NCBI GenBank assembly: GCA_020060235.1
Contig: JAGVAO010000067.1
Span: 1,257-65,256 of the forward strand
DNA: 64,000 nt
Direction of reading: 5' to 3'
Origin: Anaerolineales bacterium
Lineage (GTDB): Bacteria > Chloroflexota > Anaerolineae > Anaerolineales > Villigracilaceae
Position 1 is the first letter of the stretch. Every line of letters begins with the position of its first letter. The notes under the pieces are model-generated. The model was given only the letters and a program-made list of their open reading frames with translations, was not told the DNA's origin and made no database searches. Below are positions 4,831-63,250 of the stretch, in pieces. Made by a program: the position numbers and the translations under genes.

Positions 4831-5373
4831 ATGCAAACGGTCAAAATGGTCGTCACCGGCCCTTTCAGCGCTGGCAAAACGGAATTTATCCGCTCAGTGA
4901 GTGAAATTGACGTCGTCGCTACTGAACGCAAGATTTCATCTGACTCTGAAAGAGCGGTGAAACAGGCAACTACGGTGGCCATGGACTTTGGCCGTATCAC
5001 CGTGGATGAAGACCTGGTGCTCTACCTGTTTGGAACTCCCGGCCAGAAGCGTTTTGACTTCATGTGGGAAATCCTTTCCGAAGGGATGCTCGGGTTCATC
5101 GTCATGGTTGACAGCACCCGGCCAGAAACCTTCCGCGAAGCGCGCTCCATTCTCGAAACTTTCCGCGCTTACGCCCCCACGCCCTATGTCGTAGCCGCCA
5201 ACAAACAGGATGTTGATGATGCCTGGGAATTGGAAGATATGCGTCATGCCTTGCGCCTTGACGGCAAGGTAAAACTGCTTCCGTGCGTTGCCACCGATAA
5301 AGATACGGTCAAAAACGTCCTGCTCGAGTTGCTTTACAGCATCCTGGCAGAGATGGAAGGCAACGAAAAATAA
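4831..5373 (+). CDS. small Ras-like GTPase of the conservon CvnD / COG2229 type
   Basis: P-loop GPFSAGKTEF, switch II FGTPGQKRF and NKxD as AANKQD are all present. The core TTVAMDFGRI...LYLFGTPGQ is typical of CvnD-like 'ATP/GTP-binding proteins'. GAGGA RBS. Confidence 0.8.
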   Translation: MQTVKMVVTGPFSAGKTEFIRSVSEIDVVATERKISSDSERAVKQATTVAMDFGRITVDEDLVLYLFGTPGQKRFDFMWEILSEGMLGFIVMVDSTRPETFREARSILETFRAYAPTPYVVAANKQDVDDAWELEDMRHALRLDGKVKLLPCVATDKDTVKNVLLELLYSILAEMEGNEK

Positions 5374-27974: not shown

Positions 27975-28013
27975 GGCCCTAAAGGATTAACAAACCTTTA
28001 GGGCCTGTTTTTG
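27975..28013 (+). terminator. rho-independent terminator
   Basis: Perfect 11-bp stem 'ggccctaaagg'...'cctttagggcc' followed by TGTTTTTG. Confidence 0.75.
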
Positions 28014-31628: not shown

Positions 31629-31668
31629 CGAGAAGAAAAAAAGATGGAATAGTGGATGAGCAACTCCA

Positions 31669-31693
31669 CTGAAAACTGAAAACTGGAAACTGA
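31669..31693 (+). repeat. tandem heptamer CTGAAAA x3 (the third copy is CTGGAAA)
   Basis: 'ctgaaaactgaaaactggaaactga' ends 3 nt before the ATG at 31697. Confidence 0.6.
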
Positions 31694-34633: not shown

Positions 34634-34687
34634 GGAGTCCAGCGTCTCCTGACGTTGGATATCGAAAATCGGGAGATTTTCGACTCC
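34634..34687 (+). repeat. palindromic element, family B copy 1 (intergenic)
   Basis: Hairpin 'tcgaaaatc'-ggga-'gattttcga' (34662-34683), with outer arms 'ggagtc' (34634) and 'gactcc' (34682-34687). Confidence 0.7.
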
Positions 34688-34701
34688 AAAAGGATTATCT
34701 C

Positions 34702-37557
34702 ATGAAAAAAACACAACTTTCCTTAACCGTAAACGGCAACACCCACACCCTGGCCTCCATCCCCGGCGAAACGCTGGCGGATTTGTTGCGTAAACGCCTG
34801 CACCTGACCGGCACAAAAATCGGCTGCAACGAAGCCGAGTGCGGCGCGTGCACCGTCATCATGGACGGCGAACCGGTCTTGTCCTGCTCCACCCCGGCGG
34901 AACGCGCCGACGGCAAGACAATTTTGACGATTGAGGGGCTGGCAAAGACCCCCCTCGCCCCTGCGGGGCACTCCCCCCATTTTCAAGGAAAATGGGAGGA
35001 GACGGAGGGGGGCCTGCATCCTCTGCAGGAAGCCTTCGTCTCCCACGGCGCAGTCCAGTGCGGGTTCTGCATCCCCGGCCAGATTATGACATCGTATGCC
35101 CTGCTCGAAAAGAACCCCAACCCGACCTCCGACGACATCCGCCACGCGCTCAAGGATACCATCTGCCGCTGTGCTGGATACCCGACGATTGAGAACGCGA
35201 TTTTAGCCGCCGCCGAATCGCTCCGCACTGGGCAGCCGGTTGAAGGGCCGGACATCCCGGATTCTGCGCTGGAGGGACAAACCGTCGGCAAGTTGAAAGT
35301 CCGCCCGGACGGGGTCGAGAAAGTCACCGGCCACGCGATTTACACCGATGACCTGATTTTCGATAACATGCTCTTCGCGGCGGTCAAGCGCGCGGGCGTG
35401 CCTCACGCTTTTGTCCGCAAAATTGACGTGGAAAAAGCCCGCAGCGCCCCCGGCGTCGTCTCCGTGCTGACCGCCGAAGATGTCCCCGGCGAAAACATTC
35501 ACGGACTGGTGACGCTCGACTGGCCGGTCATGGTCGGTATCGACGAACGCGTCCGCTATGTCGGTGACGCGATAGCGATTGTAGCCGCCGAAAGCCAGGA
35601 AGCGGCTAAAGCGGCGGTTGAACTTATCGAAGTTGAATTCGACCTCCAGCCGGTTGTTGGCAACGCAGTCCAGGCGCGGGAGGAGGGCCAGCCGCAAATC
35701 CACGAAAAGGGCAACCTGCTCAAGCACATCAAAGTCCGCAAGGGCGACCCGGAAATCGGGTTTGCCGAAGCAGACATCGTGCTGGAACACACCTTCCACA
35801 CCCCGGCCCATGACCACCTGTTCATCGAACCGGAATGTAGCATCGCCGTTCCCGAGGGCGAACGCATGTTAATTTACGTCGGCTCGCAAATTCCGTACCA
35901 GGATAGAACGCAAGTCGCCCGCGCCCTGGGCTGGGACGAGGGCCGGGTGCGTATCCTCGGCCAGTTGATGGGCGGCGGCTTCGGCGGCAAGGAAGACATC
36001 GCCGGGCAAATACACGCCGCGCTGCTGGCAAATGCCACCGGGCGGCCCGTCAAATTGCTCTTTGACCGCCACGAGAGCCTGCTGGTGCATCCCAAGCGCC
36101 ACGCTACCCAAATCAAGGTCAAGATTGGCGCGAAGAAGGACGGTACCCTGGTCGCTGCCAAAACCGAACTATACGGCGACACCGGCGCGTATGCCTCGCT
36201 GGGCGAGAAAGTGCTGACCCGCGCCACGACCCACTCGGCTGGCCCGTACATCATCCCGCACGTCCACGCCGACTGCTACGCCATGTACACCAACAATCCC
36301 CCGGCGGGCGCGTTTCGTGGGTTTGGCGTGCTGCAATCGGCCTTTGCGATTGAAACCGTGCTGGACATGTTGGCCGAAAAACTCGGCCTCGACCGCATCG
36401 AACTGCGCCGCAAGAACGCTCTGCGCGTCGGCACCGAAACCAGCACCGGGCAGGTGATGCGCGAGAGCGTCGGGCTGGTGGAGTGTATTGACAAGGTGTC
36501 AGGTACCATGTGTCAGGTGTCAGGTTTGTCGAGAGACGAATTGTTCCAGGCACGGCGGGTTCCCGACGCTGAACACCTCGTCCGCGCCTGGGGTTTTGCT
36601 TCCGGCTTCAAGAACACTGGTCTGGGCGGCGGCGCGGACGATTGCGCCGGGGCCGAAGTCGAACTCTATGAGGATGGCCTGTTCGAGGTGCGCTCCTCCT
36701 CCGCTGAACTCGGCCAGGGTCTCGTCACCGTCATGCGCATGATTGTGGCCGAGGAACTGTCCGTCCCGGCGGAGCAGGTCAAAGTCCTGGTGATGGACAC
36801 CGACCTGACCCCCAACGGCGGCCCGACCACCGCCTCGCGCCAGACCTACGTTACCGGCAATGCTTCAAGATTGGCGGCCAAGACCCTGCGCGAAGCCATC
36901 ACAGCGACCCTGGCCGAAAAATACGACCAGGCTCCCGATAAAATCCGCTTCGAGGACGGCAACGTGCGCGTCAATGGGCATAGCCTGACCATGCAGGAAG
37001 TCTACAGCGAGATGAAAGCCGCCGGGAAAGACCCGCGCGTCTTGTACGATTACCACGCCCCGGCCACGACCCCGCTCGGCACGCCCGGGGATATGCACGT
37101 CGCTTTCTCGTTCGCCTCGCAGGCCGCCGAGGTGGAAGTCAACACCCTGACCGGCGAAGTAAAAGTCCTGCGCGTCATCGCTGCCAATGATGTTGGCCAC
37201 GCCATCAACCCGCTCGGCTTGCGCGGACAAATCGAAGGCGGCGTCGTCATGGGCGTCGGCCATGCCCTGCTCGAAAACTTCATCACCAAAGACGGCATGG
37301 TCGTCACCGACCGCATGTCGCGCTACCGCGTCCCGTCCATCGTCCACACGCCCGAAATCATCCCGATTGTGGTCGAAGACCCGGCGTCAGACGGACCTTA
37401 CGGCGCGAAGGGCGTCGGCGAAATCGTCCTGATTCCGACCCCGCCCGCCATCACCAACGCCATCTACAATGCGGTCGGCGTACGATTCGACACCCTGCCG
37501 GTCGACCAGGAGAAATTGCTCTGGGCGATGCGGAATTCATCAGGCAGCGCAGGATAA
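34702..37557 (+). CDS. xanthine dehydrogenase / aldehyde oxidase family protein: [2Fe-2S] small subunit fused to the molybdopterin-binding large subunit
   Basis: N-terminal ferredoxin motifs GCNEAECGACTV and QCGFCIPG...CRCAGY, followed by an approximately 780-aa MoCo domain (GGGFGGKE, ...GPYGAKGVGE). Confidence 0.85.
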   Translation: MKKTQLSLTVNGNTHTLASIPGETLADLLRKRLHLTGTKIGCNEAECGACTVIMDGEPVLSCSTPAERADGKTILTIEGLAKTPLAPAGHSPHFQGKWEETEGGLHPLQEAFVSHGAVQCGFCIPGQIMTSYALLEKNPNPTSDDIRHALKDTICRCAGYPTIENAILAAAESLRTGQPVEGPDIPDSALEGQTVGKLKVRPDGVEKVTGHAIYTDDLIFDNMLFAAVKRAGVPHAFVRKIDVEKARSAPGVVSVLTAEDVPGENIHGLVTLDWPVMVGIDERVRYVGDAIAIVAAESQEAAKAAVELIEVEFDLQPVVGNAVQAREEGQPQIHEKGNLLKHIKVRKGDPEIGFAEADIVLEHTFHTPAHDHLFIEPECSIAVPEGERMLIYVGSQIPYQDRTQVARALGWDEGRVRILGQLMGGGFGGKEDIAGQIHAALLANATGRPVKLLFDRHESLLVHPKRHATQIKVKIGAKKDGTLVAAKTELYGDTGAYASLGEKVLTRATTHSAGPYIIPHVHADCYAMYTNNPPAGAFRGFGVLQSAFAIETVLDMLAEKLGLDRIELRRKNALRVGTETSTGQVMRESVGLVECIDKVSGTMCQVSGLSRDELFQARRVPDAEHLVRAWGFASGFKNTGLGGGADDCAGAEVELYEDGLFEVRSSSAELGQGLVTVMRMIVAEELSVPAEQVKVLVMDTDLTPNGGPTTASRQTYVTGNASRLAAKTLREAITATLAEKYDQAPDKIRFEDGNVRVNGHSLTMQEVYSEMKAAGKDPRVLYDYHAPATTPLGTPGDMHVAFSFASQAAEVEVNTLTGEVKVLRVIAANDVGHAINPLGLRGQIEGGVVMGVGHALLENFITKDGMVVTDRMSRYRVPSIVHTPEIIPIVVEDPASDGPYGAKGVGEIVLIPTPPAITNAIYNAVGVRFDTLPVDQEKLLWAMRNSSGSAG
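34949..35012 (+). repeat. nested-palindrome segment inside the 2Fe-2S domain coding sequence
   Basis: Outer arms 'cccccctc'/'gagggggg' enclose two inner hairpins, 'gcccc-tgc-ggggc' and 'cccattttc-aag-gaaaatggg'. The segment encodes an extra TPLAPAGHSPHFQGKWEETEGG between IEGL and LHPLQ. Confidence 0.55.
36496..36524 (+). repeat. TGTCAGG-repeat element, family A copy 1 (in-frame in the MoCo subunit)
   Basis: 'gtgtcaggtaccatgtgtcaggtgtcagg' is 27/29 identical to 45731-45759. It encodes VSGTMCQVSG. Confidence 0.8.
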
Positions 37558-43520: not shown

Positions 43521-43597
43521 AATCGTTAATTCGGAGAGAAGTTTGGGAATACCCGAATTCGATACTCGATTTTCGAATACTCGAATAACGAATAGCG
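43521..43597 (+). repeat. CGAAT-unit repeat block, family D copy 1 (intergenic)
   Basis: 'aatcgttaattcgg...cccgaattcgatactcgattttcgaatactcgaataacgaatagcg' lies between convergent genes. Confidence 0.55.
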
Positions 43598-43600
43598 CTC

Positions 43601-44395
43601 TTACGGCAATCCCTTAAATCCCTGTTCGCGCCAGGTGCTGAAACGCTGCCAGCCGATGTCCGAGAGCATCAGGGTCATACCAAAGCCAATTAGAACGCAG
43701 GTGATGAAGAAAAAGGCCACTTCTTCGATGGGCAGGATGCCGAAGAAGTTGATGCCCAGCGTCTGGTCTTTGGAGATGTTCCAGGTGGTGGCGCTCAGGG
43801 CGACGATGTCGGTTAGCGAGAGATACAGTCCGGGGATAAAGATGGACGTAAAAACCACTTTGCGGTAATGCCACAAAATATCTGCCCCGAACAGGAATTG
43901 GGGAATGATGGGTGGCAGCGCCCAGAAGAAGATGATGCCCAGGTAGTTCCACTCATCACCGGCGAAGAAAAATTGGAAGGTAAAGAAGACCCAGGCGGCA
44001 ATGAGTATTCCGGTTGACAAGTAAACCAGTTTTGGGCTGCGCTGGAAGGTTTCAGGAGCGGGCAGTCTCAGCCGCCGAGCCAGGAACCACCACCACAAAC
44101 CAACCAAGATGGTTTCGACGATAAAGAACGTGTATTCTTCAATCGGAACATAGCCAATCGTAATGCCGGTGACCAGGTCCGGGTTGTAGTACCAGACGCC
44201 GGTGGCGACCAGGTAGTTGTCCCAGGGGGTGGTGTAAACCAACGCGATGAGAACATGCACGGCGATAATTAGCGGCACTTTTTTTGCGTCGAAACCGGGA
44301 GTGGGGCGTCCGGCGCGCTTGTCCAGCCAGGTGATGACCAGCAGGACAAGAATCGGGATGATGACGAAGTAAGCGAGAAAGGCGAAGTAGGTCAT
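43601..44395 (-). CDS. lycopene cyclase, fused CrtYc/CrtYd-type (two lycopene-cyclase domains)
   Basis: A duplicated membrane domain, each half carrying the PxEE motif (VPIEEYTFF and LPIEEVAFF). Confidence 0.75.
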   Translation of the reverse strand: MTYFAFLAYFVIIPILVLLVITWLDKRAGRPTPGFDAKKVPLIIAVHVLIALVYTTPWDNYLVATGVWYYNPDLVTGITIGYVPIEEYTFFIVETILVGLWWWFLARRLRLPAPETFQRSPKLVYLSTGILIAAWVFFTFQFFFAGDEWNYLGIIFFWALPPIIPQFLFGADILWHYRKVVFTSIFIPGLYLSLTDIVALSATTWNISKDQTLGINFFGILPIEEVAFFFITCVLIGFGMTLMLSDIGWQRFSTWREQGFKGLP

Positions 44396-45744
44396 GAGGA
44401 TTTTAGATTGGATGATAGGCGGCGGGTAATTTTCATCAACACACCCGGGCGCGGTTCAAGGGTTGCGCCCATATGCGGGTGGATGTTTTCTGTCAAAAGT
44501 TGAAAATCGAAAGTCCTTAAAAGCTGGCTGACCACAATCCGCGCTTCGGCCTGGCCAAAGGCGGCCCCGATGCAGGCGCGCGGCCCGCCGCCGAAGGGGA
44601 TGAAGCTCATCGGGGGCGTTGCTTGCCTCGTGCTTTTTTGCGAGGTGCGGGCTTGCGAGAATCGTTCAGGCTGGAACTGGTCTGGGTTTTCCCAGATGGT
44701 CGGGTCACGCTGGGTCAGGTAAATCGAGTAGAACATGCGCGAACCGGCCGGGATGGTTTTACCCTCGCCAAAAGCCACATCCTGCGCCGCGATGCGGTTG
44801 CCGATGTGGATGGGCGGATATAGGCGCAAGGTTTCCTTGATGACCTGGTCGAGCAGGGGCGGGGTCTGGCCGGGTTCGCTCGCGTCCAGTTCGCGGACGA
44901 GGCGGGCGTGGATGTCCGGGTGCTGGCCGAGCAGGGCGAAAACCCAGGCCAGCAGCGCGGTGGAAGTGTCGTGCCCGGCAATCAGCATGGTCAGCATTTG
45001 GTCACGAATGATTTTGTCGGTCAGGTTGGCGTCGATGAGGTGTTGAAGCAAATCGTTATTCGGGGCTTCGGTATTCGATGAATCGGCGTCCGAATATCGA
45101 ACATCGAATATCGCTTTTCGCCGTTCTGCAATGATTTCATACAGGTAGTCATCGAGGGCTTTCAGGCGTTTTTTATAACCAGGGCGCGGGATGCGCCGCC
45201 ATAAAATCCATGCGCCGGGGGAGATGTAGTCGATGGCTTTCAAGATGGGCGTCCAGATGCGCGGGATGTCGTCCCAGGCATCGCGGCTGAAGAGGGCCTG
45301 GATGATAATCAGCAGGGCGATTTTGCGGCCTTCGACGAGCATATCCACTACCTGCCCATCCTGCCAGGTTGCGCTGACCCGTTTGGTTTGCTGGCGCATC
45401 ATTTCGGCGTAGCCGGGCAACTTGCCTGGGTGCAGCGACGGTTCCATGAGTTTGCGGTAATGGTCGTGTTCCTCTCCATCGGTGACGAGCACGCCGCGGT
45501 CGAGCAGGTCTGTGACCGGGTCGTTGTTGCGCCACTGGAACTTGTCACGCTCGGTGACGAGTACCTTGCGGGCGGCTTCGGGGCCAAAGACGATGTAGGG
45601 CTTGAATCCCGGCAGAGGCACCTGGAAGAAGCGCCCGACCCGCTCGGCCATAACGCGCAGCGGCCCGAGCGGGGGTTTTTCTGCGAGAAAGGATTTCAGG
45701 ACGGCGAGGCCGAGTTGGGGGTCGGAGGATGTGTCAGGTTTCAT
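44392..45744 (-). CDS. cytochrome P450, probable carotenoid-modifying monooxygenase by context
   Basis: I-helix [14 protein letters not shown] (ExxR) and heme loop [10 protein letters not shown]. The stop overlaps the lycopene cyclase start. Confidence 0.85.
45051..45113 (+). repeat. CGAAT-unit repeat block, family D copy 2 (in-frame inside the P450 gene)
   Basis: 'aatcgttattcgg...ggtattcgatgaatcggcgtccgaatatcgaacatcgaatatcg' encodes ...[20 protein letters not shown].... Confidence 0.5.
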
Positions 45745-45759
45745 GTGTCAGGTGTCAGG
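45731..45759 (+). repeat. TGTCAGG-repeat element, family A copy 2 (spans the GNAT stop and the P450 start)
   Basis: 'gtgtcaggtttcatgtgtcaggtgtcagg'. On the minus strand it supplies the TGA of the GNAT gene, the 10-nt spacer, and ATG AAA CCT GAC AC of the P450. Confidence 0.8.
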
Positions 45760-46276
45760 CGAGGGTTTTGGTCAGGTAAAGCACCAGGTCGTCATCGACG
45801 GGGATGGATTGGCCGTACTGAACGGGCTGGCCGCGCGAGAACAGTCCGCGCCCGTCGGGGATGTAACCGCGTTTGGCGTACATGCGCTGGGCCGAGCCGT
45901 AGTCGGCGGTCATGCCGACGCCCAGGCCAACCACTGCGCTTCGGGCGGCAACCCGTTTTTCGGCTTCGTCCATCAGGGACTCGCCGATGCCCTGGCGGCG
46001 GAATTTGGGCAGGACGTTGAAATCGACAATTTCAGGGATGTTTTGCTCGCGGAAAGGCGGGTAGTGCGACTGCCAGCAGATGGTGACGTAACCAGCGAAG
46101 TCCAAAATCGGGAGATTTTGGACTCCAGAATGAGCGACCAGGACGACCCGCTGGCCTGCTTCCTGCTCCGCGAGATATTTCTCATACTGCGAGGCGGGTT
46201 TATCCCAGCCCAGTTCAGAAAAAGCAGCAGCGATGGAGTTAATGTCGGTGGGTTCGATGAGGCGAATGGTAGGCAT
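45755..46276 (-). CDS. GNAT-family N-acetyltransferase
   Basis: 173 aa with the acetyl-CoA motif FRRQGIGESLMDEAEKRV. Confidence 0.8.
   Translation of the reverse strand: MPTIRLIEPTDINSIAAAFSELGWDKPASQYEKYLAEQEAGQRVVLVAHSGVQNLPILDFAGYVTICWQSHYPPFREQNIPEIVDFNVLPKFRRQGIGESLMDEAEKRVAARSAVVGLGVGMTADYGSAQRMYAKRGYIPDGRGLFSRGQPVQYGQSIPVDDDLVLYLTKTLA
46097..46126 (+). repeat. palindromic element, family B copy 2 (in-frame inside the GNAT gene)
   Basis: 'gaagtccaaaatc'-ggga-'gattttggactcc' pairs at 12 of 13 positions. It encodes GVQNLPILDF. Confidence 0.75.
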
Positions 46277-46295: not shown

Positions 46296-47747
46296 TCATT
46301 CGGGTTTTTGGCTTGTGGCTTTTGATGAATTGTAGGCTTTCAGCGTTCGTTCCCGCGCCTCGGCGCGGTCAACGATGGGTTGGGCCGGGTAGCCAGGGAC
46401 GCGGATGCCCTTTTCCCAGCAGGGGGCGTGGATTTCGGGGGTGGAGAGATGGGCGAGTTCGGGAACCCATTTGCGGATGTAGGCGCCGTCCGGGTCGAAT
46501 TTGGCCGATTGCAGCACCGGGTTGAAGATACGGAAGTAGGGCGCGGCATCGGTTCCGGTTCCAGCTGTCCACTGCCAGCCGCCGTTGTTGGCGGCCGGGT
46601 CGCCGTCGAGCAGGTTGTCCATAAACCAACGTTCGCCCCATTGCCAGTTAATCAGCAAATCCTTGACGAGAAAGGAGGCGACAATCATGCGCGCCCGGTT
46701 GTGCATCCAGCCGGTTTCGCGCAGTTGGCGCATGGCTGCGTCCACGACCGGGACGCCGGTGCGGCCTTCCTTCCAGGCGGCAAAATCGGCTTCATCGTCC
46801 CGCCAGGGGATGTTTTGCAGGGCCGGGTTGAATGCGCGCCTGGCAACGTGCGGGAAGTGGTAGAGGATAGATATGTAGAATTCGCGCCAGATGAGTTCGT
46901 TCAACCATCTTTGCGAGCCTTTTTCGTTGAACGTGTTCAACGCGGTTTCAGCCGCCTGGCGCATGGAAACCATGCCGAAGCGGATATAGGGCGAGAGGGC
47001 GGAAGTGCCGTCGAGGTCGAGGCGGTTGCGGGTTTCGTGGTAACTGGTAATTGGTGATTGAGCAAATTGAGCTAGGCGGCGTTGGGCTTCGGCTTCACCG
47101 GGAGGAAAATGGTCAACGGATGACAGCGGATGCGCGGAGTTGTCAACGGATAGGAACGGATGCACGGATTTTGCCAGCGGATGAAGGGGCGGATACTTCG
47201 GCAGGCTCGGTGCAAGTTGCGCGGATATCTCAACGGATGGGGGCAGGTTGATGGGGGGGAAATGTTCCGGAGCTGGGAGCGGGTTTAGGCTCGATGGGAG
47301 CAGGGATTTCCAGGTTTTCGCAAAAGGCGTGAAAACGGTGTACGGCTTGCCGTCTGGTTTGCGAACGGCTTCCGGGTGATGAACGGTCTGCCCGTGGACA
47401 AGGGTCAGCGGTAGGGATTGAATCAGTTGTTCGTCGCGGGCGCGGGCGTAGGGGGTGTAATCTTGCTCGGCAAAAATGGCCTGCGCGCCAGTTTCGATGA
47501 GCAGGTTGAGCAATTCAATCTCCGGTTTGCCGCGTCGAATGACCAGAGAAGAGCCGCGTTTTTGCAATTCCTGGTCGAGTTCGTCCAGGCCGCCAAAGAG
47601 GAAGGCTTGCCGCCGGGCGGGAGTGCGTTCGAGCAGGTGCGGGTCGAGGATAAAGACGGGGACCACCGCTCCCTGCTTGAGAGCGGCGCGCAAGGCCGGG
47701 TTATCCGAAAGGCGAAGGTCGCGGCGAATCCACCACAGGGAGGTCAT
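46296..47747 (-). CDS. phr: deoxyribodipyrimidine photolyase (cryptochrome/photolyase family)
   Basis: LWWIRRDLRLSDNPAL, WREFY, GWMHNRARMIVASFL, and W..G..D-type FAD-domain motifs. Confidence 0.9.
   Translation of the reverse strand: MTSLWWIRRDLRLSDNPALRAALKQGAVVPVFILDPHLLERTPARRQAFLFGGLDELDQELQKRGSSLVIRRGKPEIELLNLLIETGAQAIFAEQDYTPYARARDEQLIQSLPLTLVHGQTVHHPEAVRKPDGKPYTVFTPFAKTWKSLLPSSLNPLPAPEHFPPINLPPSVEISAQLAPSLPKYPPLHPLAKSVHPFLSVDNSAHPLSSVDHFPPGEAEAQRRLAQFAQSPITSYHETRNRLDLDGTSALSPYIRFGMVSMRQAAETALNTFNEKGSQRWLNELIWREFYISILYHFPHVARRAFNPALQNIPWRDDEADFAAWKEGRTGVPVVDAAMRQLRETGWMHNRARMIVASFLVKDLLINWQWGERWFMDNLLDGDPAANNGGWQWTAGTGTDAAPYFRIFNPVLQSAKFDPDGAYIRKWVPELAHLSTPEIHAPCWEKGIRVPGYPAQPIVDRAEARERTLKAYNSSKATSQKPE
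47112..47243 (+). repeat. 'caacggatg / gcggatgcgcgga' repeat block, family C copy 1 (in-frame in the photolyase inter-domain linker)
   Basis: 'gtcaacggatgacagcggatgcgcggagttgtcaacggataggaacggatgcacgg...' encodes ...HPLAKSVHPFLSVDNSAHPLSSVDH. Confidence 0.8.
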
Positions 47748-61198: not shown

Positions 61199-63250
61199 TT
61201 AACCCGGGTTGCAGCCCAACTCCTCCAGCCATTCGGCGGGCAGGGGTTGCCGCTGGCTGGCGCGCTCCCAGGCGGCGCAAAACGTTTTTCGCAGGAAGGG
61301 ACGTTCAGAGACGGCCTGCTTCGTGCGCATAGCCGCTTTTTGTGTGTCGCCGTTTGTTGCGCCCGCTTCAACGAAGGGCAGCCATTCGAGCGGGTCGGAT
61401 GGAGAATAGCCGAATGCGGCAGCCTCGGTATCGAGACGGGCGATTTCGTCCCATTGTTGGAATTGGCGGGCCAGCTCGGCGCGAGCATAGTAGTAGCACC
61501 ATCCGCGCGAGGGTTCGGGGCCGAAAACGGACTCGGCAACGGACTCTGTCACGGAATCACGGATGGAAGCAGACTTGGTAATTAAATCCAGGCTTGAGAG
61601 GGCAATGGCCTGACGCATGCGCTCGGACAGGTTGGGGTAGGCGTCTTCGTCGCCGGGGGAGAGGATGCGCACGCAGCCACGCAGGGGGGCCAGGAAGGCG
61701 ATGGATTGGGATGTGTTGCCGCTGAAATGGGCCGGGCGGTAGGGAAATTCGATGGGGGTATCCGGGTCGAGGGCCAGGCGGCGGGGGCGCATGTCGACGC
61801 CGAAGACGAGGTAGGGAATTTGATGCGAATCCAGGTCGGGGGCATACATCCAGTTCAGCGGGGCGGTCAGGATGTAGTCGGTTTCGTAGTCGATTTCGAC
61901 GGTGTCAGTAAACAGGACGGTCCCCGGTTGGATGGCGGGCATGCGCCAGGTGAATTGCCAGTAAATGTCGCGCTGGCGGTCCCAGTCGCGGCGAAAGATG
62001 TTGGCGTTGTAGAACTGCTGTCCGACGCCGAGGGCGACGATGAGGCTGGCGAGTATCAACCGCCAGCGTCCGTTTCGGGCGACCAGTTCGATTATCCCAA
62101 CGGCGAACAGGCTGGCGGCCAGCATCAGCGAGACGTTGAATCGGTCGTTGCTGGATTGCAGGGTGAGCGGCAGGCCGGCGGCCCAGGAGGGGATGCGTCC
62201 GAGGATGATGCCGATGATGCCGATGAGGAGTAGGTCAACGGATGGGGGAGCGGATGCGCGGAGGTTATCAACGGATGGAATCGGATGCGCGGATGGGGGG
62301 GCGGACTCTGTAAAAGTTGGCAGGCGGCTGAGGTAGAAGGTCAGGGCGGCGAAGGTGACGGCGATGAGCGCGAGGGTGAGCAAGCCCGAGGGGGTGGGGA
62401 GGGCTTCGGTAACGAGAGACAGGATTTGGGCGTAGGCAACGAATCCCGCTTTGTAGACGGCTTCGGCGGCGGTGGCGAAAAAGCCATTTAAAAGGTTGGA
62501 GGCCGGGGCTTCGACATCCAGCGCAACGTCATAATTTGCGTACAGGCCGGAGCGGTAGTAGAAAAACAGCCAGGCGGCGTTGAGCGACCAGACCAGGATG
62601 TAAGGAATCCACAGTTTAAGGGCCTGCCATGCGCGGGGCAGGAGGGGCTGCGCGGCCAGCATGGAGAACAGAAATAGGAAGCGCAGGGGTTCGATGGTCA
62701 GGAAGTATTCGGTCGGGAAGACACCCAGAACGAGAAGCAGCAGCGCAATGACGGTGCGCGGACGAAAACGGGCCGGGCTATGGAAGGCCCAGCCGGTTGC
62801 GCCAAAGGACAGGATGTAGAACAGCAGGGGAATGAGTTCCTGGTTGATGTGGGTGAAGGCGACCCAATGTTGCGAGTAGCCGGGATAGACCAGAAAGATG
62901 AGCGCGGCGGTCAGGGTCTGGCGCGGGCGGTCAGGCCAAATGCTGCGCAAGGCCCACCAGACCGAAAGGGTGAGCGCGAAGCGGATGAAAAGGGCGAAGG
63001 TTTGCCAGGCGAGCGGGGTTTCGGGCAGCAGGCTGGTGGTGAATTGGAAAATGGGGCCAAGGAAGGGACGCACGCGCAGGAAGGAACGCAGGAAACTCTC
63101 AGGGCCGAAAAAGTGCGCGCCCCAGGCGAAGGGCCAGTCGTCCCAGTAGAAGCCGGTACGGGTGAGTAGCAGTCCGTAGCCGAGAACGACCAGGACGGCA
63201 AAGGCAAGCGGAATTGTTTTGGGCGAGAATTGGAATCGGTTTTGCGGCAT
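61199..63250 (-). CDS. large polytopic membrane protein, possible GT-C-fold glycosyltransferase
   Basis: 683 aa with about 12 TM helices, an acidic first-loop motif (FYWDDWPFAW), and a soluble C-terminal domain. The family assignment is tentative. Confidence 0.4.
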   Translation of the reverse strand: MPQNRFQFSPKTIPLAFAVLVVLGYGLLLTRTGFYWDDWPFAWGAHFFGPESFLRSFLRVRPFLGPIFQFTTSLLPETPLAWQTFALFIRFALTLSVWWALRSIWPDRPRQTLTAALIFLVYPGYSQHWVAFTHINQELIPLLFYILSFGATGWAFHSPARFRPRTVIALLLLVLGVFPTEYFLTIEPLRFLFLFSMLAAQPLLPRAWQALKLWIPYILVWSLNAAWLFFYYRSGLYANYDVALDVEAPASNLLNGFFATAAEAVYKAGFVAYAQILSLVTEALPTPSGLLTLALIAVTFAALTFYLSRLPTFTESAPPSAHPIPSVDNLRASAPPSVDLLLIGIIGIILGRIPSWAAGLPLTLQSSNDRFNVSLMLAASLFAVGIIELVARNGRWRLILASLIVALGVGQQFYNANIFRRDWDRQRDIYWQFTWRMPAIQPGTVLFTDTVEIDYETDYILTAPLNWMYAPDLDSHQIPYLVFGVDMRPRRLALDPDTPIEFPYRPAHFSGNTSQSIAFLAPLRGCVRILSPGDEDAYPNLSERMRQAIALSSLDLITKSASIRDSVTESVAESVFGPEPSRGWCYYYARAELARQFQQWDEIARLDTEAAAFGYSPSDPLEWLPFVEAGATNGDTQKAAMRTKQAVSERPFLRKTFCAAWERASQRQPLPAEWLEELGCNPG
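62234..62308 (+). repeat. 'caacggatg / gcggatgcgcgga' repeat block, family C copy 2 (in-frame in the membrane protein)
   Basis: 'gtcaacggatgggggagcggatgcgcggaggttatcaacggatggaatcggatgcgcggatggggg' encodes PPSAHPIPSVDNLRASAPPSVD. Confidence 0.8.

Follow-up and report, generated by a model that had tools for sequence, protein, structure and literature searches.

A tandem heptamer array on a cytochrome P450 start codon and a similar 29-mer inside a molybdenum cofactor enzyme gene of an Anaerolineales bacterium

Two similar 29-mers and the genes that carry them

The DNA analyzed here (the window) is a 64,000-nucleotide stretch of contig JAGVAO010000067.1 from an Anaerolineales bacterium of the Chloroflexota (assembly GCA_020060235.1). 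It contains two closely similar 29-mers with unrelated flanks. The first, copy 1 (GTGTCAGGTACCATGTGTCAGGTGTCAGG), lies within a gene for a fused 2Fe-2S/molybdopterin-binding subunit of the xanthine dehydrogenase (XDH) family, referred to below as the molybdenum cofactor (MoCo) gene. The second, copy 2 (GTGTCAGGTTTCATGTGTCAGGTGTCAGG), spans the junction of a GNAT acetyltransferase gene and a cytochrome P450 gene (Table 1). An initial annotation of the window had read the two as one short element, tolerated as coding sequence in one orientation, donating stop and start signals in the other, and potentially able to reshape gene boundaries. Our comparison with related genomes suggests instead that copy 2 belongs to a class of tandem heptamer arrays found at gene starts, and that copy 1 is coding DNA that probably resembles it by coincidence.

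The two 29-mers are identical at 27 of 29 bases. In both, Tandem Repeats Finder (TRF) resolves four heptamer slots in the order TGTCAGG, degenerate unit, TGTCAGG, TGTCAGG, three of them exact. Copy 1 is read in frame as V599-S-G-T-M-C-Q-V-S-G608, in the linker that follows the Pfam domain MoCoBD_1 (which ends at residue 573) and precedes MoCoBD_2. Copy 2, read on the minus strand, provides the TGA of the GNAT gene, a 10-nt spacer (CACCTGACAC) and the ATG of the P450 gene, whose product begins MKPDT. On all of these points, from the degree of identity and the heptamer structure to the two reading frames, the sequence agrees with the initial annotation. Apart from the two copies, TGTCAGG is not enriched in the window (three other occurrences in 64 kb; nine in total against 5.8 expected). 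No match to the specific 29-mer pattern is expected in shuffled sequence, and no Rfam match at the gathering threshold was obtained anywhere in the 64-kb window.

Table 1. Positions of the features discussed, and the corresponding sites in relatives
Feature	Position	Strand	Remark
Copy 1: coding DNA for VSGTMCQVSG of the MoCo subunit	36496..36524	+	look-alike and not a repeat element, judged by its orthologues
Fused 2Fe-2S/molybdopterin-binding subunit, XDH family, 951 aa	34702..37557	+	Pfam PF00111, PF01799, PF01315, PF02738, PF20256
Copy 2: tandem heptamer array on the P450 start	45731..45759	-	CCTGACA CCTGACA CATGAAA CCTGACA C
GNAT stop codon TGA	45755..45757	-	within the first CCTGACA unit
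P450 start codon	45742..45744	-	in the degenerate third unit, CATGAAA
Cytochrome P450 gene, 450 aa	44392..45744	-	Pfam PF00067, E = 6e-64
GNAT acetyltransferase gene, 173 aa	45755..46276	-	Pfam PF00583
Second start-proximal array, ACTGAAA ACTGAAA ACTGGAA ACTGACC	31668..31693	+	3 nt before ATG 31697 of an ABC transporter gene; no Shine-Dalgarno motif
MoCo site DNA, L001			GTGACAGATACCATGTGCCAGGTGTCAGG
MoCo site DNA, L002			GTGTCAAGTGCCATGTGTCAGGTCTCAGG
MoCo site DNA, L003			GTGTCAAGTACCATGTGCCAGGTGTCAGG
MoCo site DNA, L145			GTGTCAGGGGCCATGTGCGAGGCGTCAGG
P450 leader, window and L006			gCCTGACACCTGACAC ATGAAA CCTGACACATCC; 10-nt spacer
P450 leader, L008			gCCTGACACCCGACAC ATGAAA CCTGACACC; GNAT stop 89 nt upstream
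P450 leader, L010			aCCTGACACCTGAAAC ATGAAA CCTGACACC; GNAT stop 166 nt upstream, with a long AACCTTC/AACCTTCT array between
P450 leader, L012			aCCTGAAACCTGACAC ATGAAA CCTGACACC; 10-nt spacer
P450 leader, L142			(AACCTTC)n CCTGACACCTGACAC ATGAAA TCC; no unit after the ATG; protein start MKSDPQ
P450 leader, L144			single CCTGACA unit
P450 leader, L143 and six P450 orthologues at 66-70% identity			no array

The two loci in related genomes

Searching with the MoCo protein, we obtained 120 close orthologues, 71-93% identical to it, from metagenome-assembled genomes of Anaerolineales/Chloroflexota. In about 100 of the 120, the site of copy 1 reads KVS[SGDE][AT]MCQVSGLS or differs from this by close substitutions, and none of these is gapped there; most orthologues thus do not lack the ten residues. 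The segment also aligns without a gap to the large subunit of Eubacterium barkeri nicotinate dehydrogenase (3hrd_A), KVSGTMCQVSG facing KAREKAVEVMG. Since neither these orthologues nor 3hrd_A show a gap, nothing was inserted at this site. For copy 1 considered as a reverse array within an open reading frame (ORF), no presence/absence polymorphism and no extra length were found among the same roughly 100 orthologues or in 3hrd_A.

The DNA of the site in four orthologues (Table 1) differs from the window at 3-6 of the 29 positions, mostly by synonymous changes or exchanges among Ser, Gly and Asp, and its synonymous positions show no added constraint. In the window, the perfect heptamers of copy 1 correspond to one state of a variable Ser/Gly codon plus two wobble positions, and every base state that they contain is also found in some orthologue. 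Judged by these comparisons, copy 1 is ordinary ancestral coding DNA and not an inserted repeat. A single relative, L010, provides both genes on one contig (P0018/P0130): its P450 array is present, and its MoCo protein P0018 reads KVEAEMKRLAGSD... instead of the motif. Because L010 has the array without the MoCo motif, the two copies are evidently independent of each other. In most relatives, a trp operon follows the MoCo gene.

Turning to copy 2, its third unit (CATGAAA) matches CCTGACA at five of seven positions, and the second CCTGACA unit stops 1 nt short of the P450 ATG, a layout common to L008, L010, L012 and L142. An in-frame TGA lies within the array, upstream of this ATG. The unit downstream of the ATG encodes residues 3-5 of the P450 (P-D-T), and the N-terminus MKPDT is found in 12 of the 20 closest P450 orthologues. 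L142, by contrast, begins MKSDPQ. Two CCTGAMAC followed by ATGAAA and CCTGACAC are retained in L008, L010 and L012 whatever the distance to the GNAT stop (89, 166 and 10 nt, respectively). Across the window and its relatives, the GNAT-to-P450 spacer measures 10, 40, 53, 89, 121 or 166 nt. The residues MK are common to P450 orthologues without an array, for example MKSPGSDP in L143 (where the P450 ATG overlaps the upstream stop as ATGA), and ATGAAA is thus older than the array.

The relatives also indicate how the compact junction of the window could have formed. In L142 and L144, the GNAT gene ends on its own (G/A)CCTGA (GCCTGA in L142), which precedes the P450 ATG by 53 and 40 nt, respectively. 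Removing 43 nt from the L142 leader, from its own CCTGA to the first array unit, gives exactly the junction of the window. We infer that this junction arose by deletion between direct repeats, the two CCTGA. Copy 2 was also compared with simple-sequence contingency loci, in which repeat number switches a reading frame or promoter spacing between close relatives (phase variation): its unit number differs among the relatives compared here, it lies upstream of or around the ATG, and the translated unit changes by in-frame steps (12 nt in L142). On this comparative evidence, copy 2 is an ancestral tandem heptamer array, independent of copy 1. The outcome at both loci, namely that orthologues hold the same residues, is the one that the initial annotation had named beforehand as an indication of chance resemblance, and its proposal of a single element is not borne out. 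Its other two proposals survive for copy 2 only: a sequence that is translatable in one orientation and carries stop and start signals in the other is an apt description of copy 2 and its class, though not of copy 1 as the same element, and gain or loss of units does shift the P450 N-terminus and the GNAT-P450 spacer.

Each CCTGACA unit holds a TGA. Because seven is not a multiple of three, three such units close all three reading frames; the reverse reading stays open (C-Q-V-S-G-V-R). No Shine-Dalgarno (SD) 4-mer (GGAG, GAGG or AGGA) occurs at P450 positions -20 to -4. The predicted minimum free energy of the 76-nt initiation region is -3.1 kcal/mol, no different from that of shuffles with the same low-G composition. 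We also considered CTGACA as a set of -35-like promoter repeats and set this idea aside, given that the array ends 1 nt before the ATG and leaves no room for a -10 element, and that many of the related arrays are found within the trp operon, from one cistron to the next.

Heptamers occur elsewhere in the P450 gene. At its 3' end (44392-44440, and the equivalents in L006, L010 and L142), the C-terminal SSNLKSS* is encoded by AATCTAA-type heptamers, and this sequence doubles as the leader of the gene that follows, which has an ATG overlapping the P450 stop. Translated heptamer runs, (CAATTAC)n and CGAATAT, are also present inside the P450 (45091-45113 in the window; 2117-2171 in L142). The orthologues range from 413 to 533 aa in length.

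The MoCo gene has repeat-like features of its own. In the orthologues P0017, P0018 and P0031-P0033, an insert beginning SNIEYSN... directly follows the copy-1 site and appears as an insertion. This interdomain-linker insert reads as translated CGAATAT-type repeats, and would then represent true arrays within an ORF. Other orthologues have inserts of unrelated sequence a few residues past the site. In the 2Fe-2S region of the window's gene, 34971-34999 (plus strand; CTCCCCCCATTTTCAAGGAAAATGGGAGG, peptide SPHFQGKWEE) is self-complementary at 24 of 29 positions, and the similar hairpins found at 27975, 40043, 53304 and 56764 resemble intergenic terminators. Finally, a 77-aa ORF on the minus strand (36276-36509) starts from the CATG of copy 1 with a CCTGACACCTGACAC leader. 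It is open, with the same length, in the window and three orthologues. We rejected it as a gene: its peptide is less conserved than the sense peptide, and the frame is open because the conserved sense stretch lacks the Tyr and His codons that would give antisense stops.

Heptamer arrays at other gene starts

The window contains two start-proximal arrays, the one at the P450 gene and a second one before an ABC transporter gene (Table 1), whose AAACTGA-like units match the published TAACTGA at six of seven positions. We then surveyed 103 called gene starts in ten Anaerolineales loci (L001, L002, L003, L008, L010, L012 and L142-L145). A period-7 array is present at -45 to -1 in 24 of these (~23%), against 2.8% for a null drawn from random windows. 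All 24 array-led starts are low in G on the sense strand, and 18 have no SD 4-mer. In the same loci, period-7 arrays reach 0.26 per kb, at least 17-fold above periods 5, 8, 10 and 11 (0-0.015 per kb). Their units include AATCTAA, AACCTTC, CAATTAC/CAATCAC, CGAATAT and ATTCTGC, and many of the arrays sit between cistrons of the trp operon.

To a scan of multiple phyla, with one genome per species and three TGTCAGG units required within short gaps, we owe at least 120 further loci (L013-L132). Among the matches listed, (CCTGACA)n occurs in Acidobacteriota, Planctomycetota, Desulfobacterales, Gemmatimonadota, Chloroflexota, Bacteroidota, Verrucomicrobiota and others. With both orientations treated alike, 27 of the 120 listed loci have an ATG-initiated ORF of at least 120 aa that starts no more than 30 nt from the array end in the CCTGACA sense, against 5 of 120 in the opposite one. 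The genes downstream look like ordinary housekeeping genes, as their N-termini resemble those of pdhB, ilvN, cmk, purH, ruvA, gltX and hisH. Other heptamer arrays are found in the listed loci at 0.15 per kb. Variant units include CCTGAAA, CCTGATA, CCCGACA and CCTAAAA; across variants, CC(T) is better conserved than TGA, and the stop is retained in 103 of 197.

The closest described counterpart is the TAACTGA repeat of marine Beggiatoaceae, also present in some Cyanobacteria and Bacteroidetes (MacGregor, 2015, PMC4679880). These repeats form sets of 2-6 tandem units, some split by a related heptamer. They are mostly intergenic with occasional copies inside ORFs, and are directed at the start codon; the largest class ends 1 nt upstream, mostly without a ribosome-binding site (PMC4679880). 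In forward orientation they carry stops in all frames and so overlap only the extreme end of an upstream ORF, while the reverse orientation is translatable; a translational role has been put forward as a proposal (PMC4679880). Copy 2 shares the tandem units split by a related heptamer, the orientation toward a start, the lack of an SD motif and the forward stops in all frames. It differs in its unit (CCTGACA), its host (Chloroflexota, Anaerolineales) and the one translated unit downstream of the ATG. A further difference is that numerous unit families coexist in its lineage, the majority of them having no stop codon. TAACTGA hosts have many sets per genome; here we count two arrays in 64 kb and, in relatives, the frequencies given above (24/103 starts, 0.26 per kb). 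By every positional and structural feature, copy 2 belongs with the TAACTGA-type start-proximal heptamer repeats, from which its unit sets it apart.

Other tandem heptamers have been described. In Nostoc PCC 7120, contiguous heptamers of the short tandemly repeated repetitive (STRR) type lie near start codons and promoters, four of them overlapping start codons; heptamer deletion alters reporter output, with some effects at the promoter level, and a regulatory or translational role is suspected (Pradhan et al., 10.1101/2022.06.06.494920). Copy 2 likewise lies at a start codon, whereas the Nostoc units (TTTTGAA/TTCAAAA) differ from it and belong to another phylum. Geobacter metallireducens has tandem heptanucleotides (MTYCTGA; GGACCGG) in sets of four to five at many loci, some of them in genes, which are annotated only as putative global regulator sites or RNA elements; the text consulted gives no position relative to start codons (PMC2700814). 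One of these families shares the CTGA core with CACCTGA.

The GNAT-P450 junction also recalls translational coupling by termination-reinitiation over short intergenic distances (PMC6728339, PMC10666635), in that the GNAT TGA lies 10 nt before the P450 ATG without an SD motif, and in that the two signals overlap in L143. The array does not depend on such coupling, as it persists in L008 and L010 with the upstream stop 89-166 nt away. We found no report in the literature of start-proximal heptamer repeats of this kind for Chloroflexota.

Resemblance of the two 29-mers and its possible explanations

In an all-against-all comparison of 29-mers within the window, copies 1 and 2 form the single best dispersed pair. 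As a control, we masked both copies and ran the window against unrelated bacterial DNA totaling 320 kb (4.1e10 position pairs), which gave 185 pairs with at least 23 matches, 16 with at least 24 and none with at least 25. The 27/29 match is thus unusual, although it was selected post hoc, in a reading of the window for odd features. Next in rank is a 26/29 pair that joins 5000-5028 (plus strand), in the gene for a small Ras-like GTPase (PF03029), to 45773-45801 (minus strand), at the GNAT C-terminus, sense to sense. The peptides, TVDEDLVLYL on the strand before the DxxGQ motif of the GTPase and PVDDDLVLYL in GNAT, are each conserved in their own family, and on that ground this match is demonstrably a coincidence. 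Since it is coincidental, shared codon usage inflates the within-genome tail of such matches. The consensus MoCo site and the consensus P450 leader are already alike at ~25-26 of 29 positions, against 27 in the window. We estimate a probability of roughly 65% that the resemblance is coincidental and that copy 2 is a start-proximal array.

Several observations weigh against this reading. Extrapolation of the cross-genome control gives only ~0.001 pairs at 27/29 or better expected per window; our own calculation with an independent-base model gives ~5e-5. A single 400-bp stretch at GNAT is involved in each of the three best dispersed near-repeats of the window. One of them relinks the two loci, 34662-34690 (12-40 nt upstream of the MoCo ATG) matching 46101-46129 (GNAT) at 26 of 29 positions, and its MoCo-side copy looks lineage-specific, as it was not found in the MoCo leaders of L001, L002, L003 and L145. 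This second match keeps a small doubt on coincidence. In addition, the AACCTTC, CAATTAC and CGAATAT units of the lineage have no stop codon, so that closure of all frames is not a general property of the arrays; we accordingly discarded a three-frame stop as their general purpose and regard it as a local property of CCTGACA.

The GNAT side of this second match is a hairpin (CCAAAATC-TCCC-GATTTTGG, that is, AAAATC-GGGA-GATTTT with longer arms), which L142 keeps through compensatory changes (CCAACGTC-TCCA-GACGTTGG) though the peptide changes. Just upstream of the match lies GTCTCCTGACGTTGGA, alike to the L142-type hairpin at 15 of 16 positions. A dispersed hairpin family of the form AAAATC-N4-GATTTT was considered and rejected: the window has two copies only, and no fetched locus carries it outside GNAT orthologues.

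With coincidence as the cause of the resemblance, the history of the two loci is most likely as follows. The low-G array, without SD motif or predicted structure, forms the leader of the P450 gene. Slippage and deletion within it have shifted gene boundaries, one unit now standing after the ancestral ATGAAA and encoding P-D-T, and deletion between the two CCTGA probably brought the GNAT stop as close as 10 nt to the P450 start. The array probably holds the initiation region single-stranded, which would allow ribosomes to start without an SD motif, and ribosomes terminating on the GNAT TGA could potentially reinitiate at the P450 ATG. The codons of copy 1 (GTG TCA GGT ... ATG TGT CAG GTG TCA GG) would by chance spell the reverse complement of the array, and the 27/29 of the window would have been reached through ordinary variation at wobble sites and at one Ser/Gly site.

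A broader proposition, which we consider doubtful, is that low-G heptamer arrays are a general and unrecognized SD-independent initiation leader or intercistronic spacer, in Anaerolineales and, with CCTGACA-like units, in at least eight other phyla. Slippage in such arrays would remodel N- and C-termini and seed loop inserts, the P450 array would be one instance, and the MoCo look-alike and the leader/GNAT match would perhaps reflect short-patch copying.

Short-patch copying taken by itself, through template switching or short gene conversion in either direction, would have raised the MoCo segment to 27/29 and placed the GNAT hairpin in the MoCo leader. It could explain why two of the three best dispersed near-repeats join the MoCo and GNAT-P450 loci, both as direct repeats, why pairs at 26/29 or better exceed the cross-genome control, and why the window has precisely two occurrences of AAAATCGGGAGATTTT where 0.21 would be expected. 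The hairpin, moreover, is ancestral on the GNAT side and not found in the four MoCo leaders named above. We nevertheless judge such copying unlikely. The two mismatches of the 29-mer pair fall mid-tract, on the ancestral ATGAAA of the P450 and on the ACC codon of the MoCo gene, where a single conversion tract would have overwritten them, and their position therefore argues against a single copying event. All copy-1 states of the window occur in some orthologue, the L010 genome holds the array without the MoCo motif, and conservation in relatives lends no support. RecA-type recombination, furthermore, usually needs more homology than 25/29.

It is also quite unlikely, in our view, that the heptamers are DNA or RNA sites of one sequence-specific protein (TGTCAGG/CCUGACA) that acts at both loci and co-regulates the genes. 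At the P450 start, the array is retained in a leader that otherwise diverges, CCTGACA lies upstream of ATGs in many phyla (among the matches listed), CC(T) is the best conserved part of variant units, and S1, Csp or CsrA-like binders have been proposed for TAACTGA (PMC4679880). However, the arrays of this lineage use many different units (AATCTAA, AACCTTC, CAATTAC, CGAATAT, ACTGAAA), which points to a general property rather than to one specific binder, and the MoCo site is without extra synonymous constraint and is missing in P0018-type orthologues that keep the array.

Very improbable is reciprocal translational control by antisense pairing in trans, in which the MoCo mRNA (plus strand) and the GNAT-P450 mRNA (minus strand) would pair at two sites of ~29 nt, the P450 start and the MoCo leader. 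The duplex predicted for the 29-mer region has -56.6 kcal/mol, and the second complementary site (26/29) lies 12-40 nt upstream of the MoCo ATG; yet the complementarity is not conserved (L010 is without the MoCo site, and the leaders of four relatives are without the hairpin match), and protein conservation accounts for both coding-side sequences. The least probable explanation of all is a mobile or dispersed 29-nt TGTCAGG element inserted in the MoCo gene and between GNAT and P450: the 27/29 identity and unrelated flanks would fit, but there is no indel at the MoCo site (~100 of 120 orthologues; the PDB homologue), 28 or 29 nt is not divisible by three, the ATGAAA at the center of copy 2 belongs to the ancestral P450 sequence, and no further copies occur in the window, only orthologous P450 leaders matching among 145 fetched loci. 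The 29-mers share shortness and unrelated flanks with repetitive extragenic palindromes (REP) and miniature inverted-repeat transposable elements (MITE), but unlike these they lack terminal inverted repeats, show no polymorphism for an insertion at the MoCo site, and are represented in the 64 kb by the two copies only.

One 29-nt element with two uses would have been remarkable; the evidence favors a look-alike. What the analysis adds is the occurrence of start-codon heptamer arrays in Chloroflexota, in many unit families, where such arrays were earlier described for Beggiatoaceae, cyanobacteria and a few Bacteroidetes. They may bear on the translation of SD-less genes, on the annotation of gene starts in metagenome-assembled genomes, and on how new protein termini and loop insertions arise from simple repeats.

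Repeats of other kinds are also present in the window. At 47112-47184, a photolyase ORF contains 2.4 copies of a 30-nt tandem repeat (GTCAACGGATGACAACGGATGCACGGATGTT), and a relative that matches at 24 of 29 positions, with a CAACGGATG... motif, is found at ~62265 (62264-62293). An 8/15-nt tandem repeat (GAATACTC...) occupies 43547-43587, in the short gap between convergent GT2 and lycopene-cyclase-like genes.

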